From IMG/VR virus record IMGVR_UViG_2700989274_000006, positions 1-33,280 of that record: a stretch of 33,280 nucleotides of DNA; one strand, 5' to 3'. The number at the start of each line of letters is the position of its first letter. Within the stretch, counting starts at the first letter, position 1. The notes under the pieces are model-generated. The model saw only the letters and a list, made by a program, of their open reading frames with translations, searched no databases and had not been told where the DNA came from. Source of the stretch: a virus (Duplodnaviria > Heunggongvirae > Uroviricota > Caudoviricetes). The position numbers were made by a program, and so were the translations under genes. Positions 1-25,337 of this stretch are shown here, in pieces.

Positions 1-1326
1 ATGGCGCTTTCAAGACAAAAATTTACCTTCGAAAGACTTCGCAGATTCACCTTACCGGAAGGGAAAAAACAAACTTTTCTTTGGGATGCAGATGTAACAA
101 CCCTGGCATGCCGAGCAACTAGCGGAGCAAAAGCCTTTGTATTCCAAAGCGTATATGCGGGGAAAACCCTTCGCATGACTATTGGCAATATTAACGACTG
201 GAAGATTGATGATGCGAGAGCCGAGGCAAGACGGATACAAACATTGATCGATACAGGGATAGATCCACGAGTTGCTAAGGCTGTAAAAATCGCAGAAGCA
301 GAATCCCTGCAGGCAGAATCACGTAAAACAAAAGTGACTTTCTCCGTCGCCTGGGAAGACTATCTTCAAGAATTGAGAACCGGTATCAGTGCAAAAACTA
401 AACGCCCATATTCTACTCGATACATTGCCGATCACATTAACTTGTCCAGTCGTGGAGGCGAAAGTAAAAAAAGAGGCCAAGGCCCGACTTCGGCTGGACC
501 ATTGGCTAGTTTGCTCAACCTGCCGTTATCGGAGCTAACCCCAGATTACATAGCAGCGTGGCTGAGTACAGAAAGGCAAAATAGACCTACCGTCACTGCT
601 CACGCTTATCGCCTACTACGTGCTTTCATCAAATGGAGTAATTATCAGAAAAAATATCAAGGGATCATTCCTGGCGATCTGGCACAAGATTACAACGTAA
701 GAAAAATGGTTCCCGTGTCAGCGAGTAAAGCTGATGATTGCCTGCAAAAGGAACAACTAAAAAGCTGGTTTAGTGCCGTGCGTAGCCTCAATAATCCTAT
801 TGCATCGGCCTATCTCCAAGTACTTTTGCTCACTGGTGCTCGGCGTGAAGAAATTGCGTCGCTTCGCTGGTCAGACGTAGATTTCAAATGGTCAAGCATG
901 CGAATTAAAGACAAGATCGAAGGTGAACGTATCATCCCTCTCACTCCTTATGTTTCTGAATTGTTAAATGTACTAGCGCAATCCCCAAATTCTGACGTAA
1001 ATAAGGAGGGTTGGGTTTTCAGAAGTAACAGTAAAAGTGGCAAAATTATTGAGCCGCGTTCAGCGCACAACAGAGCGTTAGTGCTGGCTGAGTTACCACA
1101 TATCAGCCTTCACGGTTTACGTCGTAGTTTTGGTACTTTGGCCGAGTGGGTTGAAGTTCCCACTGGTATTGTTGCTCAAATTATGGGACACAAACCCAGC
1201 GCTCTTGCCGAAAAACACTATCGCCGTCGTCCGTTAGATCTGTTACGAAAATGGCACGAGAAAATTGAGACATGGATCTTAAATGAAGCAGGTATTACCA
1301 TAAAAAACAACGTTGATATGCGTTGA
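1..1326 (+). CDS. Tyrosine site-specific integrase (P4/CP4-57-like island integrase)
   Basis: 441 aa ORF; conserved catalytic-domain motifs LLLTGARREEIASLRWSDVDF, HGLRRSF and a C-terminal HxxY-type region (MGHKPSALAEKHY); gene starts at window position 1, so the att site or tRNA target would lie upstream, outside the window. Confidence 0.9.
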   Translation: MALSRQKFTFERLRRFTLPEGKKQTFLWDADVTTLACRATSGAKAFVFQSVYAGKTLRMTIGNINDWKIDDARAEARRIQTLIDTGIDPRVAKAVKIAEAESLQAESRKTKVTFSVAWEDYLQELRTGISAKTKRPYSTRYIADHINLSSRGGESKKRGQGPTSAGPLASLLNLPLSELTPDYIAAWLSTERQNRPTVTAHAYRLLRAFIKWSNYQKKYQGIIPGDLAQDYNVRKMVPVSASKADDCLQKEQLKSWFSAVRSLNNPIASAYLQVLLLTGARREEIASLRWSDVDFKWSSMRIKDKIEGERIIPLTPYVSELLNVLAQSPNSDVNKEGWVFRSNSKSGKIIEPRSAHNRALVLAELPHISLHGLRRSFGTLAEWVEVPTGIVAQIMGHKPSALAEKHYRRRPLDLLRKWHEKIETWILNEAGITIKNNVDMR

Positions 1327-1442
1327 TTCCATTAAAAATCAACATATTACAAAATATCATCAACTATTGATCAAGATAGATTTTCATGTATCGTAATACA
1401 CAGTTTAGTCAATGATACAGCAACTACACAGGAGATAAGCCA

Positions 1443-1883
1443 ATGGCAACCCCAGCAACTGTATCCATAGAACCCACTCTGGCAGCTATCAGAGCTCGCT
1501 GGTGTATTAATTCAAGTAAAACAACTCAATCCTTTAACGATCCTGCGTCCATGGAAGAGGTTGTCGAGTATCTCAAAGGAACATACTCAGCTCTTCGCAA
1601 GTCTGTCGCATGCGCCAAACTGAAAATTTTACATCTTAAACAAAGAATGCAAAATGCTACTAACTTTCTCGCGCGTCTGATGTCATGTAAAAATCAGGCA
1701 TCCAGATCGCATCACAGTACGGCTAAATCAGCTAAAAGTGCCTTATCATCAGATTCAGGTGATGGTAGTGACCCCGACCCCGAGCCCGAAACGTTTCCTT
1801 CTGCCTTCATTACTACCCCTACTAATTCAATAATGCTTAAAGCTTTCTTTGCCAATATCTCAATCACTGAGGTGGCAAAATGA
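1443..1883 (+). CDS. Hypothetical protein with acidic Ser/Asp/Pro-rich low-complexity tail
   Basis: 146 aa ORF preceded by AGGAGA about 8 nt upstream; its stop overlaps the alpA-like start (ATGA); no recognisable domain. Confidence 0.4.
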   Translation: MATPATVSIEPTLAAIRARWCINSSKTTQSFNDPASMEEVVEYLKGTYSALRKSVACAKLKILHLKQRMQNATNFLARLMSCKNQASRSHHSTAKSAKSALSSDSGDGSDPDPEPETFPSAFITTPTNSIMLKAFFANISITEVAK

Positions 1884-2104
1884 GCGCATTCAAACTCCCG
1901 GATACATCTCAATCACAGCTCATTTCAACAGCTGAGTTAGCTAAAATCATTAGCTACAAATCTCAAACCATTCGTAAATGGCTTTGTCAGGACAAATTGC
2001 CTGAGGGGCTACCTCGCCCAAAACAAATCAATGGCCGCCATTACTGGTTACGTAAAGATGTCCTCGATTTTATAGATACATTTTCTGTACGAGAAAGTCT
2101 GTAA
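1880..2104 (+). CDS. alpA: AlpA-family phage/island transcriptional regulator (excisionase-like HTH)
   Basis: 74 aa; pattern LISTAELAKIISYKSQTIRKWLCQDKLPEGLPRPKQINGRHYWLRKDVLDFI matches the AlpA winged-HTH family; its position just downstream of the integrase is as in CP4-57. Confidence 0.65.
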   Translation: MSAFKLPDTSQSQLISTAELAKIISYKSQTIRKWLCQDKLPEGLPRPKQINGRHYWLRKDVLDFIDTFSVRESL

Positions 2105-2222
2105 TAAATTACAGATTTAATTTTATTGATTTATAGCGATGTTGCCCCGAGAAAAATGGGGCAACACTGAGAAATTTCAGATAGTAGTTTTATATTGAGA
2201 TAACAAAGAGGTTTCCTTAAAA

Positions 2223-3077
2223 ATGTCTAATAGTGTTACTAATTTTGAGATGAGCAGCGTTCTACCAGGAAAAAAACCTTGTCAAGGCAAAAACAATGAG
2301 TCACAGGTAGTACAGACTACTCCCATAAAAAAACACTCAGTCACGTTCAAAAATCAATCTTCATTAGGAGTAATTGATCATTATGCCAGACTAACAAATA
2401 AATCTCACTCTTCCGTAATAGCGGAAGTTGTGGATTTGGCTATCCCTATATTAGAAAAATGCAATCGTCATAACTGGTCAATAAATGAAATAAAAAATGA
2501 CCTGTTAAAGTTCTCTATAAAAGAAAGCATCAATCGAAGCCGAGGTAAAACAGAAGTAACTCTGGAAGAGTACTGTTCGTTAATCTGGAAAACGAACATC
2601 ATGAGTCCATTAAAAATCCCCATTGCAGATTACTTTCAACTGAACGCTAATGATGAATTCATGGGGAAAGATGAAAAAACAGTTATACGTGAAAGGCTAT
2701 CCTCGCTGAGGGAAAATTACGATATGGAAAAAGCCATTTACATTTACAATCAACGACATTTTAATGTAAAGCATCAAAGTGTCTCAGGATATTCAAACAT
2801 TATTCTTATTCATAGAACAACCTTTGAGGATTATTACTTTGATGTCGGGCAGACTCTACTCTTGTCAACATCCCAATTAATTATATTCGGGATAAATGAA
2901 GTTCTTAGAAGAAAGGGGATTGTTATGCCTTATCCGGTTGTTTGTTGGATTGATATTTACCATGTCAATGAGATGGTGGTTATGCTGCCAGTGATCCGTA
3001 AAACAGATGTTTCCAACCGTGTTAATGCACCGGATGACATCATTATAAACCCATACTCACAGGAGAGCAGAACCTAA
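2223..3077 (+). CDS. Hypothetical protein with N-terminal ribbon-helix-helix-like segment
   Basis: 284 aa ORF in a markedly AT-rich stretch; the segment KHSVTFKNQSSLGVIDHYARLTNKSHSSVIAEVVDLAI has the beta-strand plus two-helix pattern of Arc/CopG RHH domains; C-terminal ~200 aa unassigned. Confidence 0.45.
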   Translation: MSNSVTNFEMSSVLPGKKPCQGKNNESQVVQTTPIKKHSVTFKNQSSLGVIDHYARLTNKSHSSVIAEVVDLAIPILEKCNRHNWSINEIKNDLLKFSIKESINRSRGKTEVTLEEYCSLIWKTNIMSPLKIPIADYFQLNANDEFMGKDEKTVIRERLSSLRENYDMEKAIYIYNQRHFNVKHQSVSGYSNIILIHRTTFEDYYFDVGQTLLLSTSQLIIFGINEVLRRKGIVMPYPVVCWIDIYHVNEMVVMLPVIRKTDVSNRVNAPDDIIINPYSQESRT

Positions 3078-3103
3078 GAGGTAACAAAGAAGGACAAACA
3101 ATT

Positions 3104-3802
3104 ATGAGAGGTAAAATACTACTTTACCACTCAAAGTATCGCTGGCAATCACGCTCTATTTTTGGTTATTTTTTATACAAAATAACATTATTCAGGTATC
3201 AAAAAATAATTTATGACACCGGAGTGCATCAGATGCGTTCATTTTTTTACACCATATGCAGTAGCGAACAGCAAGAAAGCATTACAGATCATCACTCACT
3301 TGCTGAGATATGCCAAAAATTTAATATTCTACCTGAACATGTTGTGATCGAGCAGGTAGATATTAAAGAGGTTGTTTCAGAGCAACGTTTACTCAGACAA
3401 TTGATTCATCATGAAATGAACCGGCAGGACACGCTTGTCATTCCAGATCTAAGCTGTCTTGGCAGAACTGTGGAGGACTTACAGAATATTTTATTTTTTT
3501 GCCTTCAAAAAGAAATGTTTATCTACAGCTACCATCCAGCTTCAAGGATAGAGCCTTCTGCTGAAAGTTGCTTGTCTTTTTTGATTGCTCGTCAGGATAC
3601 GATTGACATTCACAATCTGAAATCAACTAAAAGCCGATATCGACATGTTAAGAAGAAATTAGGACGAAAGGAGGGAAGCAAATACCGACGTGATATCACA
3701 ATACTTAAGAAAGGTGGATTTACTCAGGCTGAGATTGCAAAGAAATTGAGTATCAGTTTATCGACTGTGAAGCGGCACTGGAATAACGGAATCATCGGTT
3801 AA
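3104..3802 (+). CDS. Serine-recombinase (resolvase)-like protein with C-terminal HTH, probably catalytically degenerate
   Basis: Segment YTICSSEQQ ... LVIPDLSCLGR aligns with resolvase YARVSTSQQ ... LVKKLDRLGR but lacks the Arg equivalents (R8 to I, D67-R68 to S-C); C-terminal HTH GFTQAEIAKKLSISLSTVKRH; alternative start at 3233 (MRSFFYT, GGAG upstream). Confidence 0.5.
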   Translation: MRGKILLYHSKYRWQSRSIFGYFLYKITLFRYQKIIYDTGVHQMRSFFYTICSSEQQESITDHHSLAEICQKFNILPEHVVIEQVDIKEVVSEQRLLRQLIHHEMNRQDTLVIPDLSCLGRTVEDLQNILFFCLQKEMFIYSYHPASRIEPSAESCLSFLIARQDTIDIHNLKSTKSRYRHVKKKLGRKEGSKYRRDITILKKGGFTQAEIAKKLSISLSTVKRHWNNGIIG

Positions 3803-3904
3803 TTCCAGAAGCTAATTGCAGAGTAACTTTTTAACAGCCATCACAGGCTGGGGCTACCTTCGTCTCAAATTTAGATGTTGGATAGGTATTATAATGGCAT
3901 TGTG

Positions 3905-4063
3905 TACTCTTACTACCTGTATTCACCAGTAAGAGTAGTAATCAGATCAGTATATCCGTACTAAGATCTGATACCAGTATATACCGACAACAGTGACCAG
4001 GAATAGCCCTGCCTGTATGGCATCCCTGTACGGTCTGCTATAGACCGTAGGACCAAATACAGG
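3905..4063. promoter_or_regulatory. Cluster of inverted repeats immediately upstream of the YfjJ-like gene (candidate operator or origin-like structure)
   Basis: 9-bp IR tactcttac (3905-3913) / gtaagagta (3929-3937); nested dyad cctgtat (4012-4018) ... tacggtc (4029-4035) / gaccgta (4043-4049) ... atacagg (4057-4063); direct repeats of cagtatat(a/c)ccg at 3948-3990. Confidence 0.3.
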
Positions 4064-4071
4064 TATATATT

Positions 4072-4698
4072 ATGAAAACATATCAAGGTACTCATGGAGT
4101 ACATATCCTCGAATATCAGATCAAGATTAAAAAATTATTATGTTATTTGACTAACCGTTACCCCAGGTTAACGGCGGTACGTGTCGATCTGCATTATCCG
4201 AAGATAGTCGATAACGGAGACAATATCTGCTGTTTCCCTAATCTTGAACCAGGGGTGATATCCCGAATGCGTGATTCCCTCAGAGCTAAACTGGAGGCTG
4301 ACCGTACCCGTAAGGAGCGTGAAGGTAAACGCATCTACCGTTGCCCTTTATTTATTATATGGGCGAAAGAGTATTCTGAATCAGGTAAATGCCACTATCA
4401 CATTTGCCTGTTGTTCAACAAAGACGCTTACTACCACCTCGGGGATTACGATCAGCACGATAACCTGAGAGGGATGATTACGGGAGCGTGGTACAGCGCC
4501 CTGAGACTGGAGAGAGACGATCACCCAGGTCTGGTCCATTTTCCTGATAACTGTAAGTACGTGCTGGATACCAATAATGCTGACTTCCAGCATAACTACC
4601 AAGCGCTGTTAACCCGACTGGATTACCTCACCAAAGTCGAAAGCAAAGTGTTTGGTGAAGGAGACCGTAACTTCGGCTGTAGCCAAATCGATCTGTAA
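4072..4698 (+). CDS. YfjJ/YagK-like protein (inovirus Gp2-type family)
   Basis: 208 aa; recalled similarity to the CP4-57 YfjJ / CP4-6 YagK family (PRLTAVRVDLHYP, CHYHICLLFNKDAYYHLG); position after int-alpA is as in CP4-57; family assignment is from memory, not a search. Confidence 0.5.
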   Translation: MKTYQGTHGVHILEYQIKIKKLLCYLTNRYPRLTAVRVDLHYPKIVDNGDNICCFPNLEPGVISRMRDSLRAKLEADRTRKEREGKRIYRCPLFIIWAKEYSESGKCHYHICLLFNKDAYYHLGDYDQHDNLRGMITGAWYSALRLERDDHPGLVHFPDNCKYVLDTNNADFQHNYQALLTRLDYLTKVESKVFGEGDRNFGCSQIDL

Positions 4699-4707
4699 GT
4701 CGGCAAT

Positions 4708-4737
4708 GGCCTTCTCTTTGTGGGAAGGCCTATTTTA
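4708..4737 (+). terminator. Rho-independent terminator downstream of the YfjJ-like gene
   Basis: GGCCTTC (4708-4714), 9-nt loop, GAAGGCC (4724-4730), followed by TATTTTA. Confidence 0.55.
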
Positions 4738-4785
4738 CGTCAGAGTTCAATAATATAACCAGCAGATAACCTGCCCCCAGGATCT

Positions 4786-5577
4786 TCAATTTGGTGTGAT
4801 TTTTCCACTTTCAGTCATGATAGCGATTGCTTCGTCGATAGTCTGTGTTGTAAAGAGCGAGTTTTCCCTACAGTCCTTGCGAATCACCTTCCTGTTTTTT
4901 TGCACAGAAATGTTCTCGCACCAAGCTAATGTTTCGGCGGCATGCTTTTCTTCCATGCTAATGTCCAAAAAAGCGAGGCGGCTATCAAGGGATTGCATAT
5001 CCTCATTGACAATTGAAGGACTGGATTCTAGGAGGTTCAAACGGTTTTCAACATCGGCAACCTTGCCTTTCACCTGTGAGACGTCTTCCACCAATTTTTC
5101 ATGTCTGTGGATAGCATCAGCAAGTGCTCGTGAGTTTTGGGCCAATATTTCAGCCATTTGCGCGAGGGCAGATCCTTTTGCTTCTGGCGGTGGTGGATAT
5201 ACTCCATGTTTAGTCAACGATGGTATGACCTCATGGAATAACCATTTTTGAAAGCGCTTACCAGCCGCGCTTCGGTCACTCGACATAACTCGATACAAAC
5301 CTGGTTGGGTGACGAAGATCTCTTTCTGACCTTCAAAAACACCATTTTCAGCATCTGTAGTAATATACTCATCGGGGTCAAGAGCCTGTAATTGCGCCCT
5401 GATTATTCCAGCCATCGATTTTACTGTGTAATCAGCGTTGATTTCTCTATTTTCTTTATTCAGCGTGATTAAAACATCTCGTAGTGAGATATATAGAATC
5501 TCACCAAGTATCAATGTTCTTAGATCACTTTCACCAGTCTCACCACGGTAACATATCTTGGTCAGGTTACTATTCAT
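4786..5577 (-). CDS. BRO-N domain protein (phage antirepressor-like)
   Basis: 263 aa; N-terminal Bro-N signature QPGLYRVMSSDRSAAGKRFQKWLFHEVIPSLTKHGVY; coiled-coil-like C-terminus; GAGGA 4-5 nt upstream of the ATG. Confidence 0.6.
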   Translation of the reverse strand: MNSNLTKICYRGETGESDLRTLILGEILYISLRDVLITLNKENREINADYTVKSMAGIIRAQLQALDPDEYITTDAENGVFEGQKEIFVTQPGLYRVMSSDRSAAGKRFQKWLFHEVIPSLTKHGVYPPPPEAKGSALAQMAEILAQNSRALADAIHRHEKLVEDVSQVKGKVADVENRLNLLESSPSIVNEDMQSLDSRLAFLDISMEEKHAAETLAWCENISVQKNRKVIRKDCRENSLFTTQTIDEAIAIMTESGKITPN

Positions 5578-5632
5578 TGATCCTCACATCGCAAAGTATA
5601 GGCACATTCAAATCAGTATCTTTTTTCCTGTG

Positions 5633-5665
5633 CTGTTCTGAGGTGAGTATATCACCTCAGAACAG
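5633..5665. repeat. Perfect 14-bp inverted repeat with 5-nt loop
   Basis: ctgttctgaggtga (5633-5646) / gtata / tcacctcagaacag (5652-5665); lies between the 3' end of the methyltransferase-helicase-T5orf172 operon and the BRO-N gene start; no U-tract on either strand. Confidence 0.5.
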
Positions 5666-5691
5666 GTGGCCAAATTCGGTGTGTCACTTCA

Positions 5692-6870
5692 CTATGCCTT
5701 CACCAGTTTCGCAGACATGGGGTCATAAACATACCCAATGATGCTACCATCCTTAATACGTGCAACAGCCTCATCGATAACGAATAACGGAACGAGAAAC
5801 CATTCCTCGGGCTGTACTGGATGGCCGAAACGGTCGTTAATGGTAATGTTAAGCCTTGCGGGTGCAAACAACCTGTGAAACAGGTTTTCCATCCGGGTGC
5901 GGTTGATGCCTGCAAGCTTGTATGAAGCTACTACCTCGACCTTCGCTAACAGATAGGTGGAATCGTGTTCCGCATTGGCAATACGCGCCTCTACTTTGCC
6001 GCCAGTCACTCCAATCTTGTGAATGACATCACGATGTTCAGCTACATAAGGGTTATCAGATAGCGAACGCAACACATAAATGGTGCCACTTTCTAGATCG
6101 CTCTCTTCTAGAGCATCGCTGAATAAAGGCCCCATGTCTGGATCGGTAATTCGGCGTGCTGTTTCGTCTTTATACAAAGCACGAACCAGTGACAGCCGAA
6201 GTAGGTTGCTTTCCGTACCATTCGAGTAAATGACACGCAGTCGAGCATCTTTCTTCCCCTGTGGCGAATCGAACTCTTCACCTTCCTCAGCCACATAAGC
6301 CGTTTGACCATCCAGGATGAACCAATGGCCCACTTCAATCGTTGCATACTGTCCAAAAGGTCGGGTCACTCTTAACCCTGAACTTAGATCACTGCGCACC
6401 TGTTCAAATAGCGGTTTGAATGTATCAAAATCCTCGCACGGCTTGCGATCCGCGATCCCTTGTACAGCACGCTTTTCGGAGCTAGCACGAACATGACGCA
6501 AGACTGTGATATCGTCCTCGCTGGTAACATCCGCCAGTTCGGCAGCCAAATTATCGATATCGATAAATTCGTCCGCTGACTCCGCTCCCTCCCCCCCTCC
6601 GGCCAACAAGCCCTGATGATCCAGCGGCTCTAGCAAGGCACGGCAGTCTGGGAGACTGCGTAGCCGGTCGAGCCGCACTGCATAGAGGCGCTCGAAGATC
6701 TCACGATCTTCGCCGTGTTGCGGCGCACGTCCATGTTGGTCAGCGAAGCGCTGGATTTCCTCAAAACCTGCGATGATGCGTTCCTCGCTGGCTGGACGTC
6801 CTTTTTTCTTCTCCGGTGGTGCAAATTCGGCAAGTTCTGCCGCCAAATCGTCTAAATCAGAATTACTCAT
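5692..6870 (-). CDS. T5orf172 (GIY-YIG-like) domain protein, third gene of the candidate defense operon
   Basis: C-terminal motifs GTIYVLRS, HKIGVTGGKVEARI, MENLFHRLF, EEWF match the T5orf172 family pattern; preferred start at 6870 (MSNSDLDD, GGAGGG 5 nt upstream, 8-nt overlap with the helicase stop); the longest ORF extends to 6936. Confidence 0.6.
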   Translation of the reverse strand: MSNSDLDDLAAELAEFAPPEKKKGRPASEERIIAGFEEIQRFADQHGRAPQHGEDREIFERLYAVRLDRLRSLPDCRALLEPLDHQGLLAGGGEGAESADEFIDIDNLAAELADVTSEDDITVLRHVRASSEKRAVQGIADRKPCEDFDTFKPLFEQVRSDLSSGLRVTRPFGQYATIEVGHWFILDGQTAYVAEEGEEFDSPQGKKDARLRVIYSNGTESNLLRLSLVRALYKDETARRITDPDMGPLFSDALEESDLESGTIYVLRSLSDNPYVAEHRDVIHKIGVTGGKVEARIANAEHDSTYLLAKVEVVASYKLAGINRTRMENLFHRLFAPARLNITINDRFGHPVQPEEWFLVPLFVIDEAVARIKDGSIIGYVYDPMSAKLVKA

Positions 6871-8908
6871 AATGTCCCTCCGCCCTAAAACGCATAAACG
6901 CGGCTGCACCTTCTGCAAGGTGCTTTTCCCAGGCATCCGGCGAAGTTAACGATGGGAGGCGTCCACGTTCACGTTTGAATTCAGCAGCACGCTTGGCGAT
7001 CACTTTGGCATCTTCAGGCGTGATCGAGGTACGCTTGGCCGAGATGGCCGCCGCGACCTGCTTCAAGCTATCTTCGCTCATTGTCTTAGCAAGGATGGCG
7101 TAGGCTTCACCAAAGGGATTGATGCGGTCGATAAGATCTATGTCTAAATCGCGTACGTCCATCGCAAAGCGACGCACTCCGTCAATAAGGGCAGTATTGA
7201 GCGTCCCATCGTTCTCGCCGTTGACAATACGCTTAGCCTGCTGCGTGAGATTAAGGGCGGCAATAGCGTGCTGACGCACAGCCTCCTGATCTTCAGCGCC
7301 AAGTTCAGGGTACTTTTCTTTGATGATCTTCCCCATACGAACCTGTGTTAATTCTTCAGGAATGAGCTCTTCGTCGAACAGTCCACGTTCGATGGCGGGC
7401 TTATCTTGCACAAAAGCCGCGATCACTTCATTTAAATCTTCCTGGCAGATGCGTGCCGCCTCTTTGCTCCTGGGCTCGGCAAGTCCCTTAATCTCGATTT
7501 GATACGTCCCTGTCTGCTCATTAACACCAAAATTGCAGTTATCCGGGTCATACCCTCCTTCACCATAATCAAAACCTGGGGTCGGGCCGCTTTCTGGGTT
7601 CTTAGGCTTGAACTCGAAGCGCGGAGCCAATACTTGCTCCATCAGCAGGCTTGCCGCGATGGCTTTCAAGGTATCGTTGACTGCCTCGGTGACTGCCCCC
7701 TCTACAGCATCCGGCTCGGCGATCAGGTTAGTAAACCTTGCGCGGGTTTTACCCGGCGCGTCGCGAGTGGCGCGACCGATGATCTGCACGATCTCAGTCA
7801 GGCTGGCACGGTAACCAACGGTCAACGCATGTTCGCACCAGATCCAGTCGAAACCTTCCTTCGCCATACCAAGTGCAATAATGATGTCCACATAATCACG
7901 GTCTGTCTTCATTTCTGCAGCACGGAGACTTTCCTGAATCTTGCCTTGGCTGGTTGGGTCCACCAGGTCAGCAATACGTAACACGCGTCCATCGAGGCAT
8001 TTGACTAGCTGAAAACCAGTCACAGGATCCGCTCCTTGCCAATCGCCAAGCTCGCCGAGAATGTGCTCCACCTCTTTGATTTTATCCTTCGTGCTCTCGC
8101 GCGAATTGACGTTGGGAATATGGATAATGGTCTTCTTGTCAGGATCGAGTACATTGAGGATGTCATCGACGTAGGAGCCACTGTAGAAGAAGTAGCCGAT
8201 ATCGAGTTGCTTGAGGTATTCGTAGCCGTTAAGTTGTTCGTAGTAGGTGTAGGTGACGGTATCGAACCTGGACTCATCCTGAGGAGCCAACACGGCCTCC
8301 GCATCACCCCGGAAGTAGGATCCGGTCATGGCAACGATGTGCGTCTTGTCCCGCGCGATAAACTGCCCCAGCTGCTGACCAAGCTTATTATCCGGGTTAG
8401 CTGACACATGGTGGAATTCATCGACCGCGATCAGGCGATCGTCAAACGCTTCTATACCGTAGGCATCGACCGCGAAGCGAAAGGTTGCGTGTGTGCAAAC
8501 AAGCACCTTGTCACTACTTTCAAGAAAAGAGCCAAAAGATCTTACCTTGCCACCGTTGTCGTTACCGGGCGCGTTGCACAGGTTCCACTTAGGTTCGACA
8601 TGCCAATCAGTCCAGAATCCAAACTGCGATAGCGGTTCATCGTTGAAGCTCGCGCCGATAGATTTTTCCGGCACAACGATGATTGCCTGTTTAATCCCTT
8701 GATTTTCGAGTTTGTCGAGTGCGACGAACATCAGAGCACGACTCTTACCGGAGGCGGGCGGCGACTTGATGAGAAGATATTGTTCTCCGCGCTTCTCATA
8801 GGCCCTTTCTTGCATAGGCCGCATCCCAAGAGCATTAGCCTTGGTCGATGCTCCGCTGCGTGAGTAGGTAACGGAAACGGACGGTACTGATTTAATCTTG
8901 TTGCTCAT
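6863..8908 (-). CDS. SF2 DExH-box helicase/translocase (type III restriction Res-like ATPase)
   Basis: 681 aa; Walker A SPPASGKS, motif II VDEFHH, motif III MTGS, motif VI QIIGRATR; ~250 aa C-terminal extension of unknown function; start overlaps the methyltransferase stop (ATGA). Confidence 0.8.
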   Translation of the reverse strand: MSNKIKSVPSVSVTYSRSGASTKANALGMRPMQERAYEKRGEQYLLIKSPPASGKSRALMFVALDKLENQGIKQAIIVVPEKSIGASFNDEPLSQFGFWTDWHVEPKWNLCNAPGNDNGGKVRSFGSFLESSDKVLVCTHATFRFAVDAYGIEAFDDRLIAVDEFHHVSANPDNKLGQQLGQFIARDKTHIVAMTGSYFRGDAEAVLAPQDESRFDTVTYTYYEQLNGYEYLKQLDIGYFFYSGSYVDDILNVLDPDKKTIIHIPNVNSRESTKDKIKEVEHILGELGDWQGADPVTGFQLVKCLDGRVLRIADLVDPTSQGKIQESLRAAEMKTDRDYVDIIIALGMAKEGFDWIWCEHALTVGYRASLTEIVQIIGRATRDAPGKTRARFTNLIAEPDAVEGAVTEAVNDTLKAIAASLLMEQVLAPRFEFKPKNPESGPTPGFDYGEGGYDPDNCNFGVNEQTGTYQIEIKGLAEPRSKEAARICQEDLNEVIAAFVQDKPAIERGLFDEELIPEELTQVRMGKIIKEKYPELGAEDQEAVRQHAIAALNLTQQAKRIVNGENDGTLNTALIDGVRRFAMDVRDLDIDLIDRINPFGEAYAILAKTMSEDSLKQVAAAISAKRTSITPEDAKVIAKRAAEFKRERGRLPSLTSPDAWEKHLAEGAAAFMRFRAEGHYE

Positions 8909-11712
8909 GCATTAGTTCTCACTTTACGCTTCTTGCCTTTGGCCGGTGCAGCAGAAGCGGCCATCTTTATATAAAGATCAAATAGCTTTTCAAGCCGCTC
9001 TGTATCATTCTTAAAGCGACGGCCGATGTAGATGCGCTCCAGTACTTCATCATTGCGATCATGCGCAGCCCGCAGATCAGTAGGCATGTTAGCAGGATCG
9101 TATAGGTCCGCGATGGTCGCGGGAAAATGATGCTCACGCGCCAGAAGTATGTCCTCCGCGCAGCGTGTGAGGTCAGCCTTGTTTTTTTCTGTGAGTTTTG
9201 GTACTGGGAAGGTGTTCCAGCCGAGGGTGTTAGAGTAGCGGTAGCGTGTTTCCAATTTTCCGCAGATGGTGGCGATCCAAACCAGGTGTAGACGAGATGC
9301 AATGAGCGCAAGATTCCAGAGCGGAGCGTCGTAGAGAGCAAAGGCGAGGTTACTGACTACCGAATGATTATCAATCAGTCCAACAGGAAGATACTCGCGC
9401 CCTTCCGATGAAACCCCCGGTAGAATCAGCGTGTGCTTGCCACCGTGATACATTTCGCGAAACTGATGAGCCCGTGATGCTAACTCATTCGTACCAGCAT
9501 CTTTACTTTTGAGCCGCATTTCCCGAACGCCATCAATCCGACCCCGAATAGACGCAATCTCCAAAGCTTGCGGCAATTTTACATCAGGGATCCAGAGGCA
9601 CTTACGTACTACTCCGCGAATAAACTCGGCAGAACCATAGATGCGCCGAAGAAATGTCTCTTCATCCTGCTTGCTCAAACCGAGCGAAACCGCGTCATCC
9701 GCCGATAACAAAAGATTTCCCCCATCGACGGGCATGTTGCCAAAAGACATATCCGGCAGACCCGATATGCTCTTGCGCTGGCCCTCGACTACAACATCCT
9801 CACCAACACTCAGATAGGGCGTGATGTTTGTCGCCTCGCGTACAGTAGTTTGGCCATTGCGGTCCAAGTCGTAAAGTAGCCTTGTCTTACTCACATCCGT
9901 AGATAGGCCGACGATAGCGACTGTTACACCCGCGTTGTGTGCAGCAAGGTTCGTCCATTTGAAGCTGGAGTGCGCGAAGCGAATGTGGGAGCCACATTTG
10001 AAAATTGCTGGCCACAGGATAGGAACAATTCGGCCTTGACAGATAGAGTTGGTGCTAACAAAAGCCGAATCCGTTGGTGTGGCTTGCGCGTAGGCAGCAG
10101 CTTTCATGAACCAACCACCAACATAATCGATTTGTTTAGACGAAATACCATAAGGTTCAAATACCGAAGCCAAATCCGCTTTCTGCTCTTTAGTCTGCGT
10201 TTGGCTACCTTTGTAAGGTGGGTTACCACAGATGTATGTCTCCCCACCTTCGTTCTGAAAGCCAATCTCTGCTTGACCGAGAGGCGTCTCAAAGAGGTTA
10301 TCTGCCTGCAACTTCACGCCAATTCCGGACGGAGGGCAAACGCTCAACCAATCAATCCGCAATGCGTTGCCACATGTAATCCAATTATCATTACGCAGAG
10401 GAAGAAACTCGGCCAGTGCAAGTTTTAGTCCCCGGTACACCACATCGCACTGATACTCAGCAATAACTAGCGCGAGACGGGCAATCTCCGCAGGGAAATC
10501 TCGTATTTCGATCCCGCGAAAGTTGGTAAGAGGGATGTCAGAGGCATTATCCATCTCGCCACGTCGTCGATTAATCTCGGCCTCGATGGCTCGCATTTCC
10601 TTGTACGCAATCACTAAGAAGTTGCCAGATCCACATGCTGGGTCGAATACGCGGATTCGGGCCATACGCTTGCGCAGATTGAGCAGCATGCGCGGATTGT
10701 CACCGGCTTCATCCAGTTTCGCCCGCAGTTCGTCGAGGAATAGTGGGTTAAGCACCTTGAGTATATTGGGGACACTAGTGTAATGCATTCCCAACTCACC
10801 ACGCTCTTCGTCTTCGGTAATGGCCTGAATCATCGAGCCGAATATGTCTGGGTTGATTTTGGTCCAATCCAGATTGCCAACATGTAGAAGATAGGATCGC
10901 GCAATACGGCTGAAGCGCGGTACCTCCTCACTTCCCGAGAAAAGAGCGCCGTTTACATAAGGAAACTCAGCAGCCCAACGCGGGATACCGACAACACTTC
11001 GCTCATCGCGTGGGGTGTTCATTGCACGAAACAACGTGGCGATGACCTCGTGCAAATTAGAAGCGTCGCGCTCACTCATCTGCGCAATAGTGTCAGTAAA
11101 GCGCCCCTTGCCTATAAATATGTCAGTGTCTTCGGCGAAAAAGCAGAAAATTAGACGCGCCATGAACTTGTTCATGTCATGACGACGCCCCGAAGTACCC
11201 CATTCAGGATTGTCTTTTAACAGTTCGACGTACAGGCGGTTCAAACGGCTAGTAGCACGGATGTCAAAGGCGTCTTCGCTGATCTGCCGAACAGTGCTGA
11301 TACCTGCCAATGGCAAAAAGAAGCCGAAGTGATCGGGAAAGTCTTTAAAGGCACAAGCCACAGTCTGACCACTGTTGAGGTCCTCGGCTTCAAAGTATTT
11401 GCCGTCCGTGGCAAGGATGAATTTCGCCTTGGCCTTGCCTGTTGCCGGGCTGGCCTTAAGTGCAGCCAGCATCTGTGTGACTTGGCCCCCTTCACTGGCC
11501 AGAATGTGGATGTTGTTTGTCTGAAGAACACCACCCAAGTCGGACTTATTCGATGCCCCGGCGCGCAGACGTTTGATGGTCGTTTCCTTGTTACCAAAGG
11601 CTTCAAGAAAAGCATAAGGAAACTCTATAGGATCAAAGGGTTGTTCCGCAAGATCCGTGATGGCTTGCTCAATTTCTACGGCGTTCATTTGCGTACAGTT
11701 CTCCATTGGCAT
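8905..11712 (-). CDS. MmeI-family (type IIG/IIL-like, YeeA-like) N6-adenine DNA methyltransferase, apparently without endonuclease motif
   Basis: 935 aa; SAM motif I FDPACGSGNFLV, catalytic motif IV GNPPY; further MmeI-family blocks MARLIFCFFAEDTDIF, LGMHYTSVPNILKVLNPLFLDEL; no PD-(D/E)xK seen in the N-terminal ~120 aa. Confidence 0.85.
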   Translation of the reverse strand: MPMENCTQMNAVEIEQAITDLAEQPFDPIEFPYAFLEAFGNKETTIKRLRAGASNKSDLGGVLQTNNIHILASEGGQVTQMLAALKASPATGKAKAKFILATDGKYFEAEDLNSGQTVACAFKDFPDHFGFFLPLAGISTVRQISEDAFDIRATSRLNRLYVELLKDNPEWGTSGRRHDMNKFMARLIFCFFAEDTDIFIGKGRFTDTIAQMSERDASNLHEVIATLFRAMNTPRDERSVVGIPRWAAEFPYVNGALFSGSEEVPRFSRIARSYLLHVGNLDWTKINPDIFGSMIQAITEDEERGELGMHYTSVPNILKVLNPLFLDELRAKLDEAGDNPRMLLNLRKRMARIRVFDPACGSGNFLVIAYKEMRAIEAEINRRRGEMDNASDIPLTNFRGIEIRDFPAEIARLALVIAEYQCDVVYRGLKLALAEFLPLRNDNWITCGNALRIDWLSVCPPSGIGVKLQADNLFETPLGQAEIGFQNEGGETYICGNPPYKGSQTQTKEQKADLASVFEPYGISSKQIDYVGGWFMKAAAYAQATPTDSAFVSTNSICQGRIVPILWPAIFKCGSHIRFAHSSFKWTNLAAHNAGVTVAIVGLSTDVSKTRLLYDLDRNGQTTVREATNITPYLSVGEDVVVEGQRKSISGLPDMSFGNMPVDGGNLLLSADDAVSLGLSKQDEETFLRRIYGSAEFIRGVVRKCLWIPDVKLPQALEIASIRGRIDGVREMRLKSKDAGTNELASRAHQFREMYHGGKHTLILPGVSSEGREYLPVGLIDNHSVVSNLAFALYDAPLWNLALIASRLHLVWIATICGKLETRYRYSNTLGWNTFPVPKLTEKNKADLTRCAEDILLAREHHFPATIADLYDPANMPTDLRAAHDRNDEVLERIYIGRRFKNDTERLEKLFDLYIKMAASAAPAKGKKRKVRTNA

Positions 11713-11993
11713 GTGACCGCCCTGCTGCTACTGGTGTGCAGTGAACTCATGTCATATCCTAGGTTTTCTTGGAAATTTTTGACCGTAAGTTTAACAGAAT
11801 AGAACCCAGCGCTGTAGCTGATTCAGTCTCAGATCCACGTTTCAGAAAGCCCTATTATGTATTTATGGCGAGAATTTTAGCATTGAGATATTTTCGATAA
11901 AATATACATATTTTCAGCCAATTAAAGACTGCTAAATTCATGGTATATGAGACGCTCGCATGTGAGTAACTTCCGTTCTTATTTCTGGTTTTC

Positions 11994-13316
11994 TTAAAAC
12001 GTATTAAGGTTGCACCGAATATGGTTTTCCCCGCTGACCCTGACCCGATTGACTGTCCAGTCAGCTATGACGTCAAGCACATGACGAAGGTAGCTTTCTG
12101 GATCCACGCCGTTTAGTTTGCACGTCCCGATCAGACTGTACATCAGCGCTACACGCTCACCTCCGTGGTCTGAGCCGAAGAACAGCCAGTTTTTTCTCCC
12201 CAAACTGACCATCCGCAGCGCATTTTCAGCGATGTTGTTATCGGCTTCTGTCCAGCCATTGCCTGCATAGTGCGTCAGGGCCGGCCACTGGTTAAGGGCG
12301 TACGCGAACGCTTTCGCCAGCTCTGAGTGTCGTGACAGGGTGTTCATCTTTTCACGCAGCCAGCTTTCCAGGGATTTCAGCAGCGGTTTCGCTTTCTGCT
12401 GACGTTCAGCAAGACGTTGCTCCGCCGGCATTCCCCTTATTTCCGCCCCGATGGCATACAACCCGCCGATACGCTTCAGGGCATCCTCCGTCAGCGCCGA
12501 CGGCGTGCGGGCGTACACATCGTGGATTTTACGGCGGGCGTGAGCCCAGCAGGCGGCTTCCGTTATCTGGCCACCGCGGTACAACTCGTTGAATCCTGCA
12601 TACGCATCCGCCTGCAGCACTCCCCTGAAGCCGGCAAGATGGGTCTGCGGGTGGATGGCTTTTCTGTCCGGGCTGTAAGCGAACCACACCGCCGGTGCGA
12701 CTGCTGACCCGGCGTTGCGGTCATCACGAACGTACTTCCACAATCGCCCGGACTTCGTCTTCTTATTGCCCGACAGCAGCATCTGGACCGGGGTATCATC
12801 GACATGGAGTTTGCCGTCGCTCAGGACATAGCCCCGAAGCGCCTCCTCCAGCGGTGACAGCAGCCTGCAGCATGCATCCACCCAGCCCGACAGGAGGGAG
12901 CGGCTCAGTTCCACACCCTGGCGGCTATATATTTCAGACTGGCGGTACAGCGGGGTATGCTCTGCATACTTTGAGCCCAGTACCCGGGCCAGCAGCCCCG
13001 CTCCGGCGATACTCCGCTCGATGGGACGTGAAGGCGCGGGGGCCTGCACGATAGCGTCGCATTTTGTACAGGCGTGTTTTTCCCGCACGGTCCGGATAAC
13101 CCGGAAGGCGCTGCGCATCAGCTCCAGCTGTTCAGCAGTATCTTCACCCAGCCAGCGCAGTGAATCGCCACAGTCCGGGCAGCATGATGCCGCCGACAAC
13201 AGCCGTTTTTCGTCACGAGGGAGTGATTCGGGGAACGGTTTACGGGTGCGGGTCTGGCGAAGCGACCACGCTCCAGCCGTTTGGTCAGCAGACACAGCCT
13301 GTCGCCGGTAGACCAC
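11994..13316 (-). CDS. tnpC: IS66-family transposase TnpC (N-terminus likely truncated)
   Basis: 440 aa; conserved IS66 TnpC blocks LPRDEK, CPDCGDSLRWLGEDTAEQLEL, IVQAPAPSRPIERSIAG, HTPLYRQSEI; only ~26 aa precede the LPR motif whereas family members usually carry a longer N-terminal zipper region. Confidence 0.8.
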   Translation of the reverse strand: MVYRRQAVSADQTAGAWSLRQTRTRKPFPESLPRDEKRLLSAASCCPDCGDSLRWLGEDTAEQLELMRSAFRVIRTVREKHACTKCDAIVQAPAPSRPIERSIAGAGLLARVLGSKYAEHTPLYRQSEIYSRQGVELSRSLLSGWVDACCRLLSPLEEALRGYVLSDGKLHVDDTPVQMLLSGNKKTKSGRLWKYVRDDRNAGSAVAPAVWFAYSPDRKAIHPQTHLAGFRGVLQADAYAGFNELYRGGQITEAACWAHARRKIHDVYARTPSALTEDALKRIGGLYAIGAEIRGMPAEQRLAERQQKAKPLLKSLESWLREKMNTLSRHSELAKAFAYALNQWPALTHYAGNGWTEADNNIAENALRMVSLGRKNWLFFGSDHGGERVALMYSLIGTCKLNGVDPESYLRHVLDVIADWTVNRVRVSGENHIRCNLNTF

Positions 13317-13486
13317 AGCAATTTTACCTGACTGCCACTGCAGCCCCGGAAGATGAAGACTTGGCCGGACATCGGGTCGTCTTTCAGTGCCGTCTGCACT
13401 TTTGCCGCCAGCCCGTTGAAGCCGTTGCGCATGTCGGTGATACCGGCAACCAGCCAGATTTTAGTGCCTGCAGGAAGATTTATCAT
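13118..13486 (-). CDS. tnpB: IS66 Orf2 (TnpB)
   Basis: N-terminal WLVAGITDMRNGFNGLAAKVQ ... KRLERGRF is the IS66 OrfB signature; the C-terminal tail looks atypical and overlaps the tnpC start by ~200 nt, consistent with a frameshift or deletion. Confidence 0.75.
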   Translation of the reverse strand: MINLPAGTKIWLVAGITDMRNGFNGLAAKVQTALKDDPMSGQVFIFRGCSGSQVKLLWSTGDRLCLLTKRLERGRFARPAPVNRSPNHSLVTKNGCCRRHHAARTVAIHCAGWVKILLNSWS

Positions 13487-13866
13487 ACAGTCCCTCGCAT
13501 CAGTTCGCGCAGGACAGTGGTGATGAGTTCAGTTGAGGGATGAGTCAGTGTTATATCTCCGCCCCGACATTTTATGTGACAGGCAGTCTGAGGTGAACAG
13601 GATGGCGGTTCGGGCGTTGGGGGAGATGGCTCTGCCCGAAATTGCACGGGTATGAGAGCAGGAAGCGACGATGCGTTTTTCCGTGGGTGGCAGACCCGCC
13701 CTTCACGTTGCCAGAGCCTTATCCATTTAAAGAGCAGGTTGTCATTGACATCATGTTGTCGGGCCAGCGCAGCAACACTTCCTTCTTTTTCAAGTGCCAG
13801 CCTGACCAGTTCCATTTTAAACTCAGGGGAATATCGTTTTCGGGGAAGTCTTTCTTTGGCGCGCAT
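13483..13866 (-). CDS. tnpA: IS66 Orf1 (TnpA, HTH protein)
   Basis: 127 aa; RKRYSPEFKMELVRLALEKEGSVAALARQHDVNDNLLFKW is an IS66/IS3-type N-terminal HTH; stop overlaps the tnpB start (ATGA). Confidence 0.8.
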   Translation of the reverse strand: MRAKERLPRKRYSPEFKMELVRLALEKEGSVAALARQHDVNDNLLFKWIRLWQREGRVCHPRKNASSLPALIPVQFRAEPSPPTPEPPSCSPQTACHIKCRGGDITLTHPSTELITTVLRELMRGTV

Positions 13867-14089
13867 TAGGTGTCCACCTGCAAATTAAGTGGGGGCTTAA
13901 GTTACAGGATAGTGGTTTCAGAGCCAGACGTTTTTGAGACAACGCTTACTCTAAACCCAAGCGTAAATGTCTATTATTGGCAAAATACCACCAGCCAACA
14001 TGAGCTGTGATGTAAAGTTGACACTGCTACAGTTACATGAGCCTGTTTATATTCTAAATAAATTCAGATAGATATTATCTCCGTGAATC

Positions 14090-14128
14090 CCCCGCCTCCC
14101 TGACCGGAGCGCGGGAATTTTTGTTTTT
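14090..14128 (+). terminator. Hairpin plus T-tract; candidate late-operon terminator (tR'-like) upstream of the lysis region
   Basis: GCCCGCCTCC ... GGAGCGCGGG imperfect stem followed by AATTTTTGTTTTT; a TTGACA hexamer lies at 14018-14023, but no convincing -10 was found. Confidence 0.35.
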
Positions 14129-14252
14129 CACGCTGAGAACCCTGTATGAATAAAACTGATGGCCTTCAGGCCCTGGAAAAACCGCTGGCGTCGCTTCCCG
14201 ATACGCTTCGCCAGCTTATTCTTGAACGTATTCAGAATCTGACCCACTACGA

Positions 14253-14262
14253 NNNNNNNNNN
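14253..14262. other. Assembly gap (10 N)
   Basis: Run of n characters; interrupts a plus-strand ORF that begins MNKTDGLQALEKP at 14146. Confidence 0.99.
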
Positions 14263-14281
14263 GCCACCGACGGCATTGCGG

Positions 14282-14695
14282 TCAGAAAAAGATGATATTG
14301 AATCGCCCATTGAAAAACTGGAGGGCAGCGTCGCTGATCTGAATAAAAAATTGTCGGTGCTGATTCCTTCTGAAGATGAAAAAAAACGCCGCGATGAGCA
14401 GTTTGCGGCGTTTTACGATTATTGCATTGAAGTTACTCTCGCAGGAATTTTGTGAAGATTTTTGAGGAGGGTAAATCTCTTCAGTAAGCTTAATGGCGGA
14501 CGCTGCAATTAATTCAGGAAGGTCCGCAAGGTCATCTGTCAGTGGATATGATGAAAAATCGGCGGCAGTTCTGTTAAGAAGCGCTTTAACTAATTCCTTT
14601 TCCTTCTCCGGCAACAAGTTGATTAGAGCTACGACTGCTTGCCTGAGTGCGATTAAATCAGCAAAAGTTTGTTTAGGTAGATTTGTGTAATCCAT
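14282..14695 (-). CDS. Hypothetical protein (extent uncertain)
   Basis: ORF with AGAGG about 9 nt upstream of the ATG at 14695; its C-terminal half overlaps a plus-strand reading frame that crosses the gap, so the true coding extent is ambiguous. Confidence 0.3.
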   Translation of the reverse strand: MDYTNLPKQTFADLIALRQAVVALINLLPEKEKELVKALLNRTAADFSSYPLTDDLADLPELIAASAIKLTEEIYPPQKSSQNSCESNFNAIIVKRRKLLIAAFFFIFRRNQHRQFFIQISDAALQFFNGRFNIIFF

Positions 14696-14808
14696 AGTCG
14701 CCTCTGTGTTTATCAGATTGACATCCTCCTCCCGCCAGTGCCCATCACTGGTGAGGTAAGATTTAACATATCCGGGGATTTGAAGCCGATAAATCCTGAT
14801 AAATATCC

Positions 14809-15836
<1,028 letters not shown>

Positions 15837-16087
15837 ATTAATATTAAATCGGATTATTTTTAGCGCTGAATGTGAAATTTAAATAAAAAGGACTCTTCCA
15901 TGAGTCAAAATCCTTGAAATCTTAAGGGTAAGATAAAAGGTCATTAGACAGAATGACACGTTTTATTAATAAATAAAGCTATTGTTTCATTCGTGTGTTT
16001 TTCTTTACAAAAGTAATCCTTGCTATGGTTGGTTAATCATGCGTTAATGGTGTTCTGGTTTGTTACAAAATTATCTGAAGCAGTCAT

Positions 16088-16611: not shown

Positions 16612-16618
16612 AAATGAA

Positions 16619-18851: not shown

Positions 18852-18859
18852 GAGGAATA

Positions 18860-25326: not shown

Positions 25327-25337
25327 AGAGGTGTGGG

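Follow-up and report, generated by a model that had tools for sequence, protein, structure and literature searches.

Genomic islands like the element reported here are known from two integration hotspots described by Hochhauser et al. (2023, PLoS Genet, PMC10121019): hotspot #33, which lies between yagP and proA at tRNA-Thr-CGT and had an occupant in 555 genomes (275 with a defence system), and hotspot #9, the tmRNA locus. In Fig. 3B of that paper the occupants of hotspot #33 are given as 'integrase-only' mobile elements, 'occupied in K-12', and its passages on these islands describe the mode of mobilisation as unclear. Islands with an intY-alpA-inovirus Gp2-like gene set and defence cargo have also been reported at the tmRNA gene of Pseudomonas (PNAS 2025, PMC12595487). 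The DNA analysed here, called the window, is a stretch of 33,280 nucleotides (positions 1 to 33,280 of the IMG/VR virus record IMGVR_UViG_2700989274_000006). We consider it very probable that positions 1-14252 of the window are the integrase-proximal part of a CP4-6-type island, a member of the 'integrase-only' family at the 3' end of the thrW tRNA-Thr gene, with a slot between two shared boundaries in which cargo is exchanged. Its counterpart in Escherichia coli K-12 is CP4-6, a mosaic relative of CP4-57, and not CP4-57 itself.

Six backbone genes occupy the start of the window:

Positions 1-1326, plus strand: intF, P4-type tyrosine integrase (Pfam Arm-DNA-bind_3 and Phage_integrase; phrog_1 integrase).
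Positions 1443-1883, plus strand: yagN, 146 aa, 100% identical to K-12 YagN.
Positions 1880-2104, plus strand: ykgV, 74 aa, PF12728 HTH_17 at 27.8 bits, 100% identical to K-12 YkgV.
Positions 2223-3077, plus strand: yagM, 97.9% identical to K-12 YagM; PF27701 (UCP007319 family) is precomputed for the identical gene in related contigs.
Positions 3104-3802, plus strand: yagL, degenerate serine-recombinase (invertase)-like domain with a C-terminal helix-turn-helix, 97.4% identical to K-12 YagL.
Positions 4072-4698, plus strand: yagK, YagK/YfjJ ('inovirus Gp2') family, PF11726 at E 8e-66, the last backbone gene before the slot.

All six open reading frames (ORFs) are intact, save the 5' end of intF, which lies outside the window: the first 75 nt of the gene, annotated in ECC-1470 and K-12 with a product of 466 aa, are missing, and the window opens at codon 26. 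Positions 1-4735 showed 98.4% nucleotide identity to intF-yagN-ykgV-yagM-yagL-yagK of K-12 CP4-6, in identical gene order and with backbone proteins 94-100% identical; IntF reached 99.5%. Positions 1-12043 matched E. coli strain ECC-1470 with 99.98% nucleotide identity, and the first 5.7 kb was matched in 490 of 5,426 complete E. coli genomes by megablast.

The earlier note had read the order integrase, small ORF, AlpA-like regulator, unknown genes and YfjJ-like protein as mirroring the start of CP4-57 (intA-yfjH-alpA-yfjI-yfjJ). The ORF listing and the Pfam matches place genes of the right types at those positions. The island they belong to, however, is CP4-6; of the five 'mirrored' genes, three lack homology to their supposed counterparts, and YagK-YfjJ is the sole clear protein homology to CP4-57 (43% identity, full length). 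Alignment to K-12 CP4-57 gave no DNA synteny, similarity being confined to 64 bp inside yagK/yfjJ. IntF and IntA shared 23% identity in the catalytic domain only (E 5e-4), and YkgV gave no BLAST match to AlpA, the Pfam families of the two being different (HTH_17 vs Phage_AlpA). By direct comparison with K-12 CP4-57, YagN, YagM and YagL lacked an equivalent in that island. The window in turn lacks equivalents of its yfjI (DUF3987) and of its yfjH, which lies on the opposite strand, and Pfam detected no DUF3987 among the proteins scanned from 1-11712. The note had named integrase and operon on different replicons or contigs as a result that would refute it; in the finished chromosomes of ECC-1470 and CFSAN051542 the integrase and the cargo operon described below are contiguous.

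The note had also proposed to look for the attachment site and a tRNA upstream of the integrase, and related loci place a tRNA fragment there. In K-12, the 3' end of thrW is present as a direct repeat of 61 bp (60-61 nt), with one copy in thrW and the other ~110 bp upstream of intF, where the thrW fragment points away from intF. Since the second copy is upstream of intF, IntF adjoins a displaced tRNA fragment instead of the intact tRNA, the opposite of ssrA-intA in CP4-57. Of the 13 loci with IntF that we scanned, 12 have the thrW core on the opposite strand upstream of intF (L034 has no exact core). It lies ~130-160 bp upstream of intF in ECC-1470, A39, TW01221 and 1070/13 and in seven of the eight contigs encoding the exact YagK of the window; loci with the core include L031 and L035, which have the gene order of the window and called genes that match it past the scaffold gap. 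Among 17 loci, no tRNA or tmRNA gene was found beside intF, only the partial thrW copy, and ssrA appeared only in IntA islands. The window itself contains no tRNA or tmRNA gene, and an Rfam scan of 1-14252 gave no match. As the thrW fragment lies ~110-160 bp upstream of intF in related loci and the window begins inside intF, the attachment site should be located just outside the window.

Other elements were seen next to this site. In L031 and L035 (884-5533 in both, L031:884-5533 and L035:884-5533) a second element with its own integrase and Hachiman (HamA and a DEAD helicase) stands in tandem across the thrW fragment, and in L029 a P4-like satellite is stacked as neighbour beyond the fragment.

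Integration and excision of the island at thrW would be performed by IntF, aided by the small helix-turn-helix protein YkgV. For K-12 CP4-6, excision was reported in 0.3-1.5 per 1e5 cells (PMC4632033). The start of ykgV overlaps the stop of the preceding yagN, and YkgV matched phrog_66 'excisionase and transcriptional regulator' (E 1.4e-6). It did not match PF05930 Phage_AlpA, which K-12 AlpA matches at 7e-24. YkgV is thus a candidate excisionase or activator by its family matches, and may be a functional analogue, not an orthologue, of AlpA.

The backbone is followed by a slot with two definable edges:

Positions 4708-4730, plus strand: GC-rich, terminator-like hairpin GGCCTTCTC-loop-GGGAAGGCC with a T-rich tail, the left edge of the slot.
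Positions 14051-14145, plus strand: conserved block of ~95 nt with hairpin CCCCGCCTCC...GGAGCGCGGG and a T run, the right edge of the slot.
Positions 14146-14252, plus strand: first 107 nt of a YfjP/YkfA-like GTPase gene (ATG at 14146), cut by the contig end; the start of the distal backbone.

For the left edge we aligned 200 bp around the yagK/yfjJ stop codon of eleven islands, namely the window, K-12 CP4-6, K-12 CP4-57, five other E. coli islands, two ssrA islands and one metagenome contig. The YagK/YfjJ gene ends the integration arm in every island examined. All eleven have in common a hairpin GGCCTTCTC-loop-GAGAAGGCC, 10-25 nt past the stop codon (~10 nt in the window), and similarity between cargo types stops within ~10 nt past it. 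In a pattern scan of 1-12100 this hairpin was the best terminator-like site. A strict pattern detected it after yagK/yfjJ in 25 of 35 loci, and a close variant was visible by eye in about eight more, including CP4-57. The stem is nearly constant (GGCCTT[CT]C[CT]/...AAGGCC) across YagK/YfjJ proteins down to ~55% identity, with compensated changes such as CTTCTC/GAGAAG vs CTTTCT/AGAAAG, and the loops vary. Many relatives have the hairpin without a T tail, and a plain terminator would normally have one.

On the right side, the ~95-nt block could be aligned in ten islands, including the regions upstream of CP4-57 yfjP and CP4-6 ykfA, and the BLAST matches to ECC-1470, 1070/13 and PK5074 start between 14051 and 14056. 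The distal arm beyond it (GTPase, DUF932, antirestriction, RadC, DUF987 and toxin-antitoxin genes) is present in ECC-1470 and 2013C-4282, and the window holds only the upstream block and 107 nt of it. The slot of the window is therefore ~4731-14050, holding a BRO-N gene, a three-gene operon and an IS66 remnant. Both edges are common to the window, K-12 CP4-6, K-12 CP4-57 and islands from other genera, and the DNA between them is unrelated from island to island and mostly transcribed from the opposite strand.

The content of the slot was compared across islands, where a closely related yagK was taken as one of >90% nucleotide identity. Near-identical or related YagK genes were followed by about ten cargo sets, each different. 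As the earlier note had stated, the position after the YfjJ-like gene has other genes than in K-12, and this is true for both K-12 islands: CP4-57 has abpBA and rnlAB, and CP4-6 has yagJ, IS1, argF and further metabolic genes. In strains TW01221, 2273-PO3 and others, an ORF of 395-415 aa and an IS1 insertion sequence (IS) follow yagK, and at that place CX12 and Mixta tenebrionis have the intact gene of a ResIII/DEAD helicase of 857 aa (L014:10874-13447 and L044:10718-13288). K-12 YagJ (243 aa, L002:24791-25522) corresponds to the last 243 residues of this helicase with 98.8% identity, and IS1 adjoins the truncated helicase gene in K-12 as well as in the wild strains with the 395-415-aa intermediates. 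By this alignment, yagJ is what remains of that gene after truncation at the adjacent IS1.

In strain A39 the BRO-N gene is broken into two ORFs and is accompanied by a GNAT gene and a contact-dependent inhibition (CDI) locus. In 1070/13 we found IS5 and a TrlF/Ppl ATPase (PADLOC Ppl, 1.6e-40), followed directly by the GTPase. PK5074 has PD-Lambda-4_B (7e-177), QatABCD and Gabija GajAB (~1e-278), and then the GTPase. Behind more distant YagK/YfjJ proteins, CP4-57 has AbpAB, YfjM and RnlAB, other loci have JukA-like, PDC-S26-like and type I restriction-modification (RM) genes, and another has a 1,104-aa NERD protein with a ScaI-type RM system. The C-terminus of the full-length YagJ helicase and the NERD protein received no noteworthy PADLOC or Pfam assignment.

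A scan of one genome per GTDB species gave 37 Enterobacterales loci, 30 of which had enough flank to be used for cargo. The first cargo ORF was on the minus strand in 26 of these 30, and their 173 cargo ORFs fell into 136 clusters at 40% identity. The Pfam domain census was dominated by type I RM subunits, ResIII, UvrD with AAA_15/OLD-TOPRIM (Gabija), GmrSD, C5 and N6 methylases, SIR2, BrxC (BREX), KAP NTPase and ABC-3C; sugar-utilisation genes and transposases were also among the cargo. The cargo sets are unrelated and not nested, which supports replacement over differential decay, though IS-mediated decay is also evident. The proposal of a swappable defence slot is thus borne out in its conserved backbone and its exchanged, often anti-phage cargo; the slot is neither exclusively defensive nor new.

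The cargo of the window comprises the following genes:

Positions 4786-5577, minus strand: BRO-N / Ant-like anti-repressor-type gene (PF02498 Bro-N; PHROG anti-repressor Ant families), the first cargo gene.
Positions 5692-6936, minus strand: YeeC-like T5orf172/GIY-YIG nuclease gene (PF13455/PF10544); in RefSeq a GIY-YIG nuclease of 392 aa at 5692-6870.
Positions 6863-8908, minus strand: YeeB-like superfamily 2 (DEAD/ResIII) helicase gene (PF00270/PF04851).
Positions 8905-11712, minus strand: YeeA/DnmA-like MmeI-family DNA methyltransferase gene with its own target-recognition domain (TRD); all five MmeI Pfam domains.
Positions 11994-13866, minus strand: IS66-family remnant (tnpC, tnpB, tnpA) between the operon and the GTPase block; Pfam DDE_Tnp_IS66, TnpB_IS66 and HTH_Tnp_1 match the same genes in L031.

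The BRO-N gene is absent from K-12, and elsewhere the operon occurs without it. On the minus strand, from 11712 to 5692, the operon runs methyltransferase, helicase, GIY-YIG gene, with overlapping stop/start junctions. The methyltransferase matched PADLOC REase_MTase_IIG end to end (3e-283); PADLOC gave nothing useful on the backbone, helicase and T5orf172 proteins. In a phmmer comparison with MmeI (5HR4), the alignment began at residue 96 of the query and residue 108 of MmeI, so that the MmeI D70/E80/K82 region lies outside it, and Pfam MmeI_N still matched residues 9-167. A 'second group' of MmeI homologues has been described whose members differ in the first ~100 residues, lack the PD-ExK motif and invariably have a DEAD helicase (YeeB) and a GIY-YIG protein (YeeC) as neighbours (Morgan 2009, PMC2731913); this nuclease-less group was proposed to perform type I-like restriction with single-strand methylation. 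Of the homologous systems assayed, dnmA-yeeB-yeeC of Bacillus subtilis gave no phage protection and homologues from Vibrio crassostreae protected (Fernandez 2023, PMC9973331). Judged by its predicted proteins, the operon of the window is a restriction-like system of the YeeA-YeeB-YeeC type, described but poorly characterised.

The TRD of the methyltransferase (aa ~600-800, window 9345-9900) is only 22-38% identical to the alleles of 2013C-4282, W224N and L028, and most of the rest is ~70-100% identical; L028 combines a divergent TRD with an identical YagK. Because the TRD is divergent while most of the rest is conserved, the alleles are expected to differ in specificity, and the pattern suggests TRD replacement with specificity switching. 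Of the 5,426 complete E. coli genomes, 162 have the operon, most often in a different setting such as an integrative and conjugative element (ICE)-like element beside yfgI or IS-flanked copies in Ag43 islands, and strain H7 has a near-identical methyltransferase allele in an ICE-like context. In the IS66 remnant, tnpC encodes 440 aa from a GTG start. This stretch is 98.9% identical to its equivalent in the ssrA island of strain 2013C-4282, and ECC-1470 has instead, from position 12043, ~10 kb with umuC-like and galactonate genes.

How the cargo is exchanged may be read from the mosaic of the backbone. Identity of the window to K-12 was ~100% at 1-2600, 96% at 2601-3200, 100% at 3201-3800 and 92-94% at 4001-4735, a profile that indicates at least two probable recombination tracts inside the backbone. 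In each of the eight distinct genomic places shown for the exact YagK of the window, BRO-N and the operon come next; the yagK allele travels with the cargo, and therefore the crossover would be upstream of yagK. Strain 2013C-4282 contains the block yagM'-yagL-yagK-BRO-N-operon-IS66-GTPase in an IntA island beside ssrA, with identities to the window of 94.7% over 2321-9345 and 98.9% over 11501-14252. Across the 37 species loci, the arm upstream of YagK was found in at least four combinations:

Arm combination 1: IntA-YfjH-AlpA-YfjI.
Arm combination 2: IntF-YkgV-YagM(-YagL).
Arm combination 3: IntA-YfjH-AlpA-YagM-YagL.
Arm combination 4: another integrase with YfjI or YagM/YagL.

Such a mosaic agrees with recombination, within homologous parts of the backbone, between islands that share a cell or newly enter it. 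Cargo would be exchanged by homologous recombination between the conserved flanks of islands in a mosaic family that includes ssrA/IntA islands such as CP4-57.

Several points weigh against this account of the island as a CP4-6-type element with an exchangeable defence slot. The slot is not only defensive, since in K-12 and ECC-1470 it contains IS elements together with argF, mmuPM and genes for xylonate and galactonate. In the window itself, PADLOC recognises only the methyltransferase of the operon, as a type IIG enzyme, and the B. subtilis homologue of the operon did not protect from phage (PMC9973331). The variable loops and the frequently missing T tail leave the role of the left hairpin between terminator and recognition site. 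Exchange by homologous recombination is suggested by mosaic identity patterns only. Finally, the attachment site and the distal arm are outside the window, in which the island contig stops at 14252, and this particular copy may or may not be complete and mobile.

This last point comes from the structure of the assembly. Two runs of ten N (14253-14262 and 31594-31603) mark the window as three contigs joined in a scaffold. The first of them, with the island (1-14252), ends 107 nt into the GTPase gene, and it is only scaffolded together with the Qin-like prophage late region (14263-31593) and the last 1.7 kb; the same gap is found in the public records L031 and L035. After the gap follow Qin-like lambdoid late genes, 98% identical to a Qin-like prophage from 14799. 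We considered the IS66/lambdoid-phage stretch past 12 kb as a real rearrangement and rejected it on account of the 10-N scaffold gaps at 14253 and 31594. An apparent contiguity in strain Res13-Lact-PEB17-18 was rejected as well, where an unrelated IS66 copy had been joined in. The second contig starts with this ORF:

Positions 14282-14695, minus strand: 137-aa ORF, of which the first 86 residues match the unannotated PHROG 2572 (E 5e-53).

It had no Pfam match and no PADLOC assignment of note, and it closely precedes the Qin-like lysis genes (lysozyme at 14809-15342).

Among the remaining backbone proteins, YagN had no match in Pfam, PHROG, NCBIfam or PADLOC, and NCBIfam has no model for YagK, YagM, YagN or YkgV. 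YagL showed weak Pfam matches (Resolvase, HTH_7 and Sigma70_r4), matched phrog_125 DNA invertase at 3e-8, and matched the NCBIfam Mpi-family invertase at 8e-11, far under the family cut-off. Its recombinase-like domain begins at about residue 45 (YTICSSEQQ ... LGR), where by eye the serine is kept and the conserved Arg is missing. The true start of yagL may be Met44, and RefSeq names for YagL vary between 'ECF-type sigma factor' and 'recombinase family protein'.

YagK has features of an HUH nuclease. In 39 homologues (down to 37% identity), H108 of the motif H108-Y-H110 is invariant and H110 is conserved in at least 90%; the motif is placed in a predicted strand (107-116). Y185 and K188, of the YxxK type, are also invariant, in a predicted helix (172-187). 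We regard YagK as a putative Rep-like HUH nuclease, with the motifs present and at best moderate evidence for a possible HUH fold, and the hairpin at 4708-4730 as its candidate substrate. YagK may nick or replicate the excised circle. The stronger proposal, that YagK/YfjJ is an active HUH Rep-type nuclease which recognises the downstream hairpin as its site or origin, and that the islands of hotspots #33 and #9 self-replicate after excision or are mobilisable as single-stranded DNA, is speculative and we think it rather unlikely. If such a nuclease acted on the hairpin, it would explain the spread of 'integrase-only' islands and possibly the turnover of the adjacent cargo.

A different view of the island is that it is a decaying, immobile remnant, and that the differences after yagK arose mostly in situ, by IS-mediated deletions and rearrangements and not by cargo exchange. 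Copies of IS1, IS3, IS5 and IS66 are found in or beside the slot of many strains, the IS1-truncated yagJ and the IS66 remnant of the window are of this kind, and several strains have lost intF-yagM to IS1 or IS3. We nevertheless consider this explanation unlikely: none of the six backbone ORFs is disrupted in the window, excision of K-12 CP4-6 is still observed (PMC4632033), the cargo sets do not nest, an identical cargo block is shared by islands whose integrases and attachment sites differ, and the methyltransferase allele recurs nearly identical in the ICE-like context of H7.

Somewhat less probable still is that the island is a phage satellite, P4-like or similar to phage-inducible chromosomal islands (PICI), which is mobilised by a helper, with the BRO-N/Ant-like protein and YkgV taking part in helper sensing and the slot serving as a satellite defence hotspot. 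A P4-type integrase together with an AlpA-like regulator and a BRO-N/Ant-like gene would suit it. Related backbones also carry YfjI with DUF3987, a domain probably akin to the P4 alpha primase-helicase. A jumbo phage transduces tmRNA islands of a related kind, which have int, alpA and an inovirus Gp2-like gene (PMC12595487), and Hochhauser et al., in their passages on integrase-only islands, suggest that these may be uncharacterised satellites (PMC10121019). However, Pfam and PHROG scans revealed no primase, capsid-remodelling or packaging family among the proteins scanned from 1-11712 and no Psu or Sid family among the backbone ORFs, psu/sid/delta-type genes not having been specifically searched, and among the features of P4-like satellites the window has only the integrase type. 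The BRO-N gene lies outside the conserved backbone, being absent from K-12 and from other copies of the operon.

Cargo might also be exchanged by a dedicated, element-encoded mechanism, with YagK acting at the slot-edge hairpin or YagL on sites that flank the slot. We consider this improbable, and it is less well supported than homologous recombination. The right boundary bears a different hairpin; the loops are not conserved and no common cleavage motif was seen; and islands with YfjI in place of YagM/YagL have equally variable slots. Since the yagK allele co-varies with the cargo, crossovers would lie upstream of yagK in the homologous backbone and not at the hairpin, and the catalytic motif of YagL looks degenerate by eye.

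A literal CP4-57 orthologue, an ssrA island with IntA, AlpA, YfjI and YfjJ that merely lost or replaced its cargo, is rejected for this copy as very unlikely: the YagK-YfjJ homology, the common slot boundaries and the islands combining IntA/AlpA with yagM-yagL-yagK would agree with it, but IntF is nearly identical to K-12 IntF and distant from IntA, the window has no homologue of AlpA (PF05930), YfjH or YfjI and no DNA similarity to CP4-57 outside the 64 bp of yagK, and a thrW fragment, not ssrA, precedes intF in all but one of the 13 IntF loci.

Recognition of a CP4-6-type island in the window is correct but routine, because CP4-6 is annotated in K-12, the locus is catalogued, the operon type was described in 2009 and identical sequence is present in finished RefSeq genomes. 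The idea of a defence slot was already known, the locus being the published hotspot #33. The residual interest lies in the precise boundaries of the slot and in the possible Rep function of YagK/YfjJ. The two edges shared by thrW and ssrA islands could be used throughout Enterobacterales as anchors for collecting cargo, and with it candidate defence systems, and an HUH-like YagK/YfjJ bears on how 'integrase-only' islands move. K-12 yagJ is recognised as the tail of an 857-aa helicase gene. All three additions are of modest, practical value.

Defence hotspots in P4-like satellites and prophages were reportedly described by Rousset and co-workers in 2022. These elements resemble the island of the window in the tyrosine integrase with an AlpA-type regulator and in the fixed backbone with variable defence cargo; P4 satellites differ in that no P4 hallmark-type protein (primase or capsid-related) was detected among the proteins scanned from the window. 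The Pseudomonas tmRNA islands likewise have an inovirus Gp2-like protein and RadC; compared by their description, they differ in that intY is at one end and alpA and the Gp2-like gene are at the other, and in their insertion at tmRNA (PMC12595487). With the YeeA(DnmA)-YeeB-YeeC systems the operon shares the identical order of three genes and, in the window, a similarity to MmeI that begins only after about residue 95, a likeness drawn by domains and gene order from the published descriptions. The islands of hotspot #33 share with the element of the window the same chromosomal locus and concept, and the passages of Hochhauser et al. on them make no mention of internal slot boundaries, of the YagK/YfjJ Rep-like gene or of module shuffling with ssrA islands (PMC10121019).

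CP4-57 (intA-yfjH-alpA-yfjI-yfjJ / abpBA-yfjM-rnlAB / yfjP...) is an ssrA island that resembles the type of the window in its architecture: an integration and regulation arm that ends in a YagK/YfjJ gene and hairpin, then a slot of reverse-strand defence cargo, and a distal arm of the order GTPase-DUF932-antirestriction-RadC-toxin/antitoxin. Hybrid islands link it to the CP4-6 type. It differs in having IntA, AlpA (PF05930), YfjI (DUF3987) and yfjH, where the type of the window has IntF, YkgV (HTH_17) and YagM/YagL, and in its target, which is ssrA with the integrase beside the intact gene, whereas CP4-6 targets thrW and has the integrase beside the fragment. With CP4-6 (K-12: intF-yagN-ykgV-yagM-yagL-yagK ... 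ykfA ... yafW-ykfI) the window shares the six backbone genes, the hairpin after yagK and the block before the GTPase gene, and loci related to the window share with it the thrW fragment upstream of intF. The two differ in the yagK allele, that of the window being only 94% identical to that of K-12, and in the cargo, which consists of yagJ, IS1, argF, xylonate and mmu genes in K-12 and of the BRO-N gene, the YeeABC-type operon and the IS66 remnant in the window.

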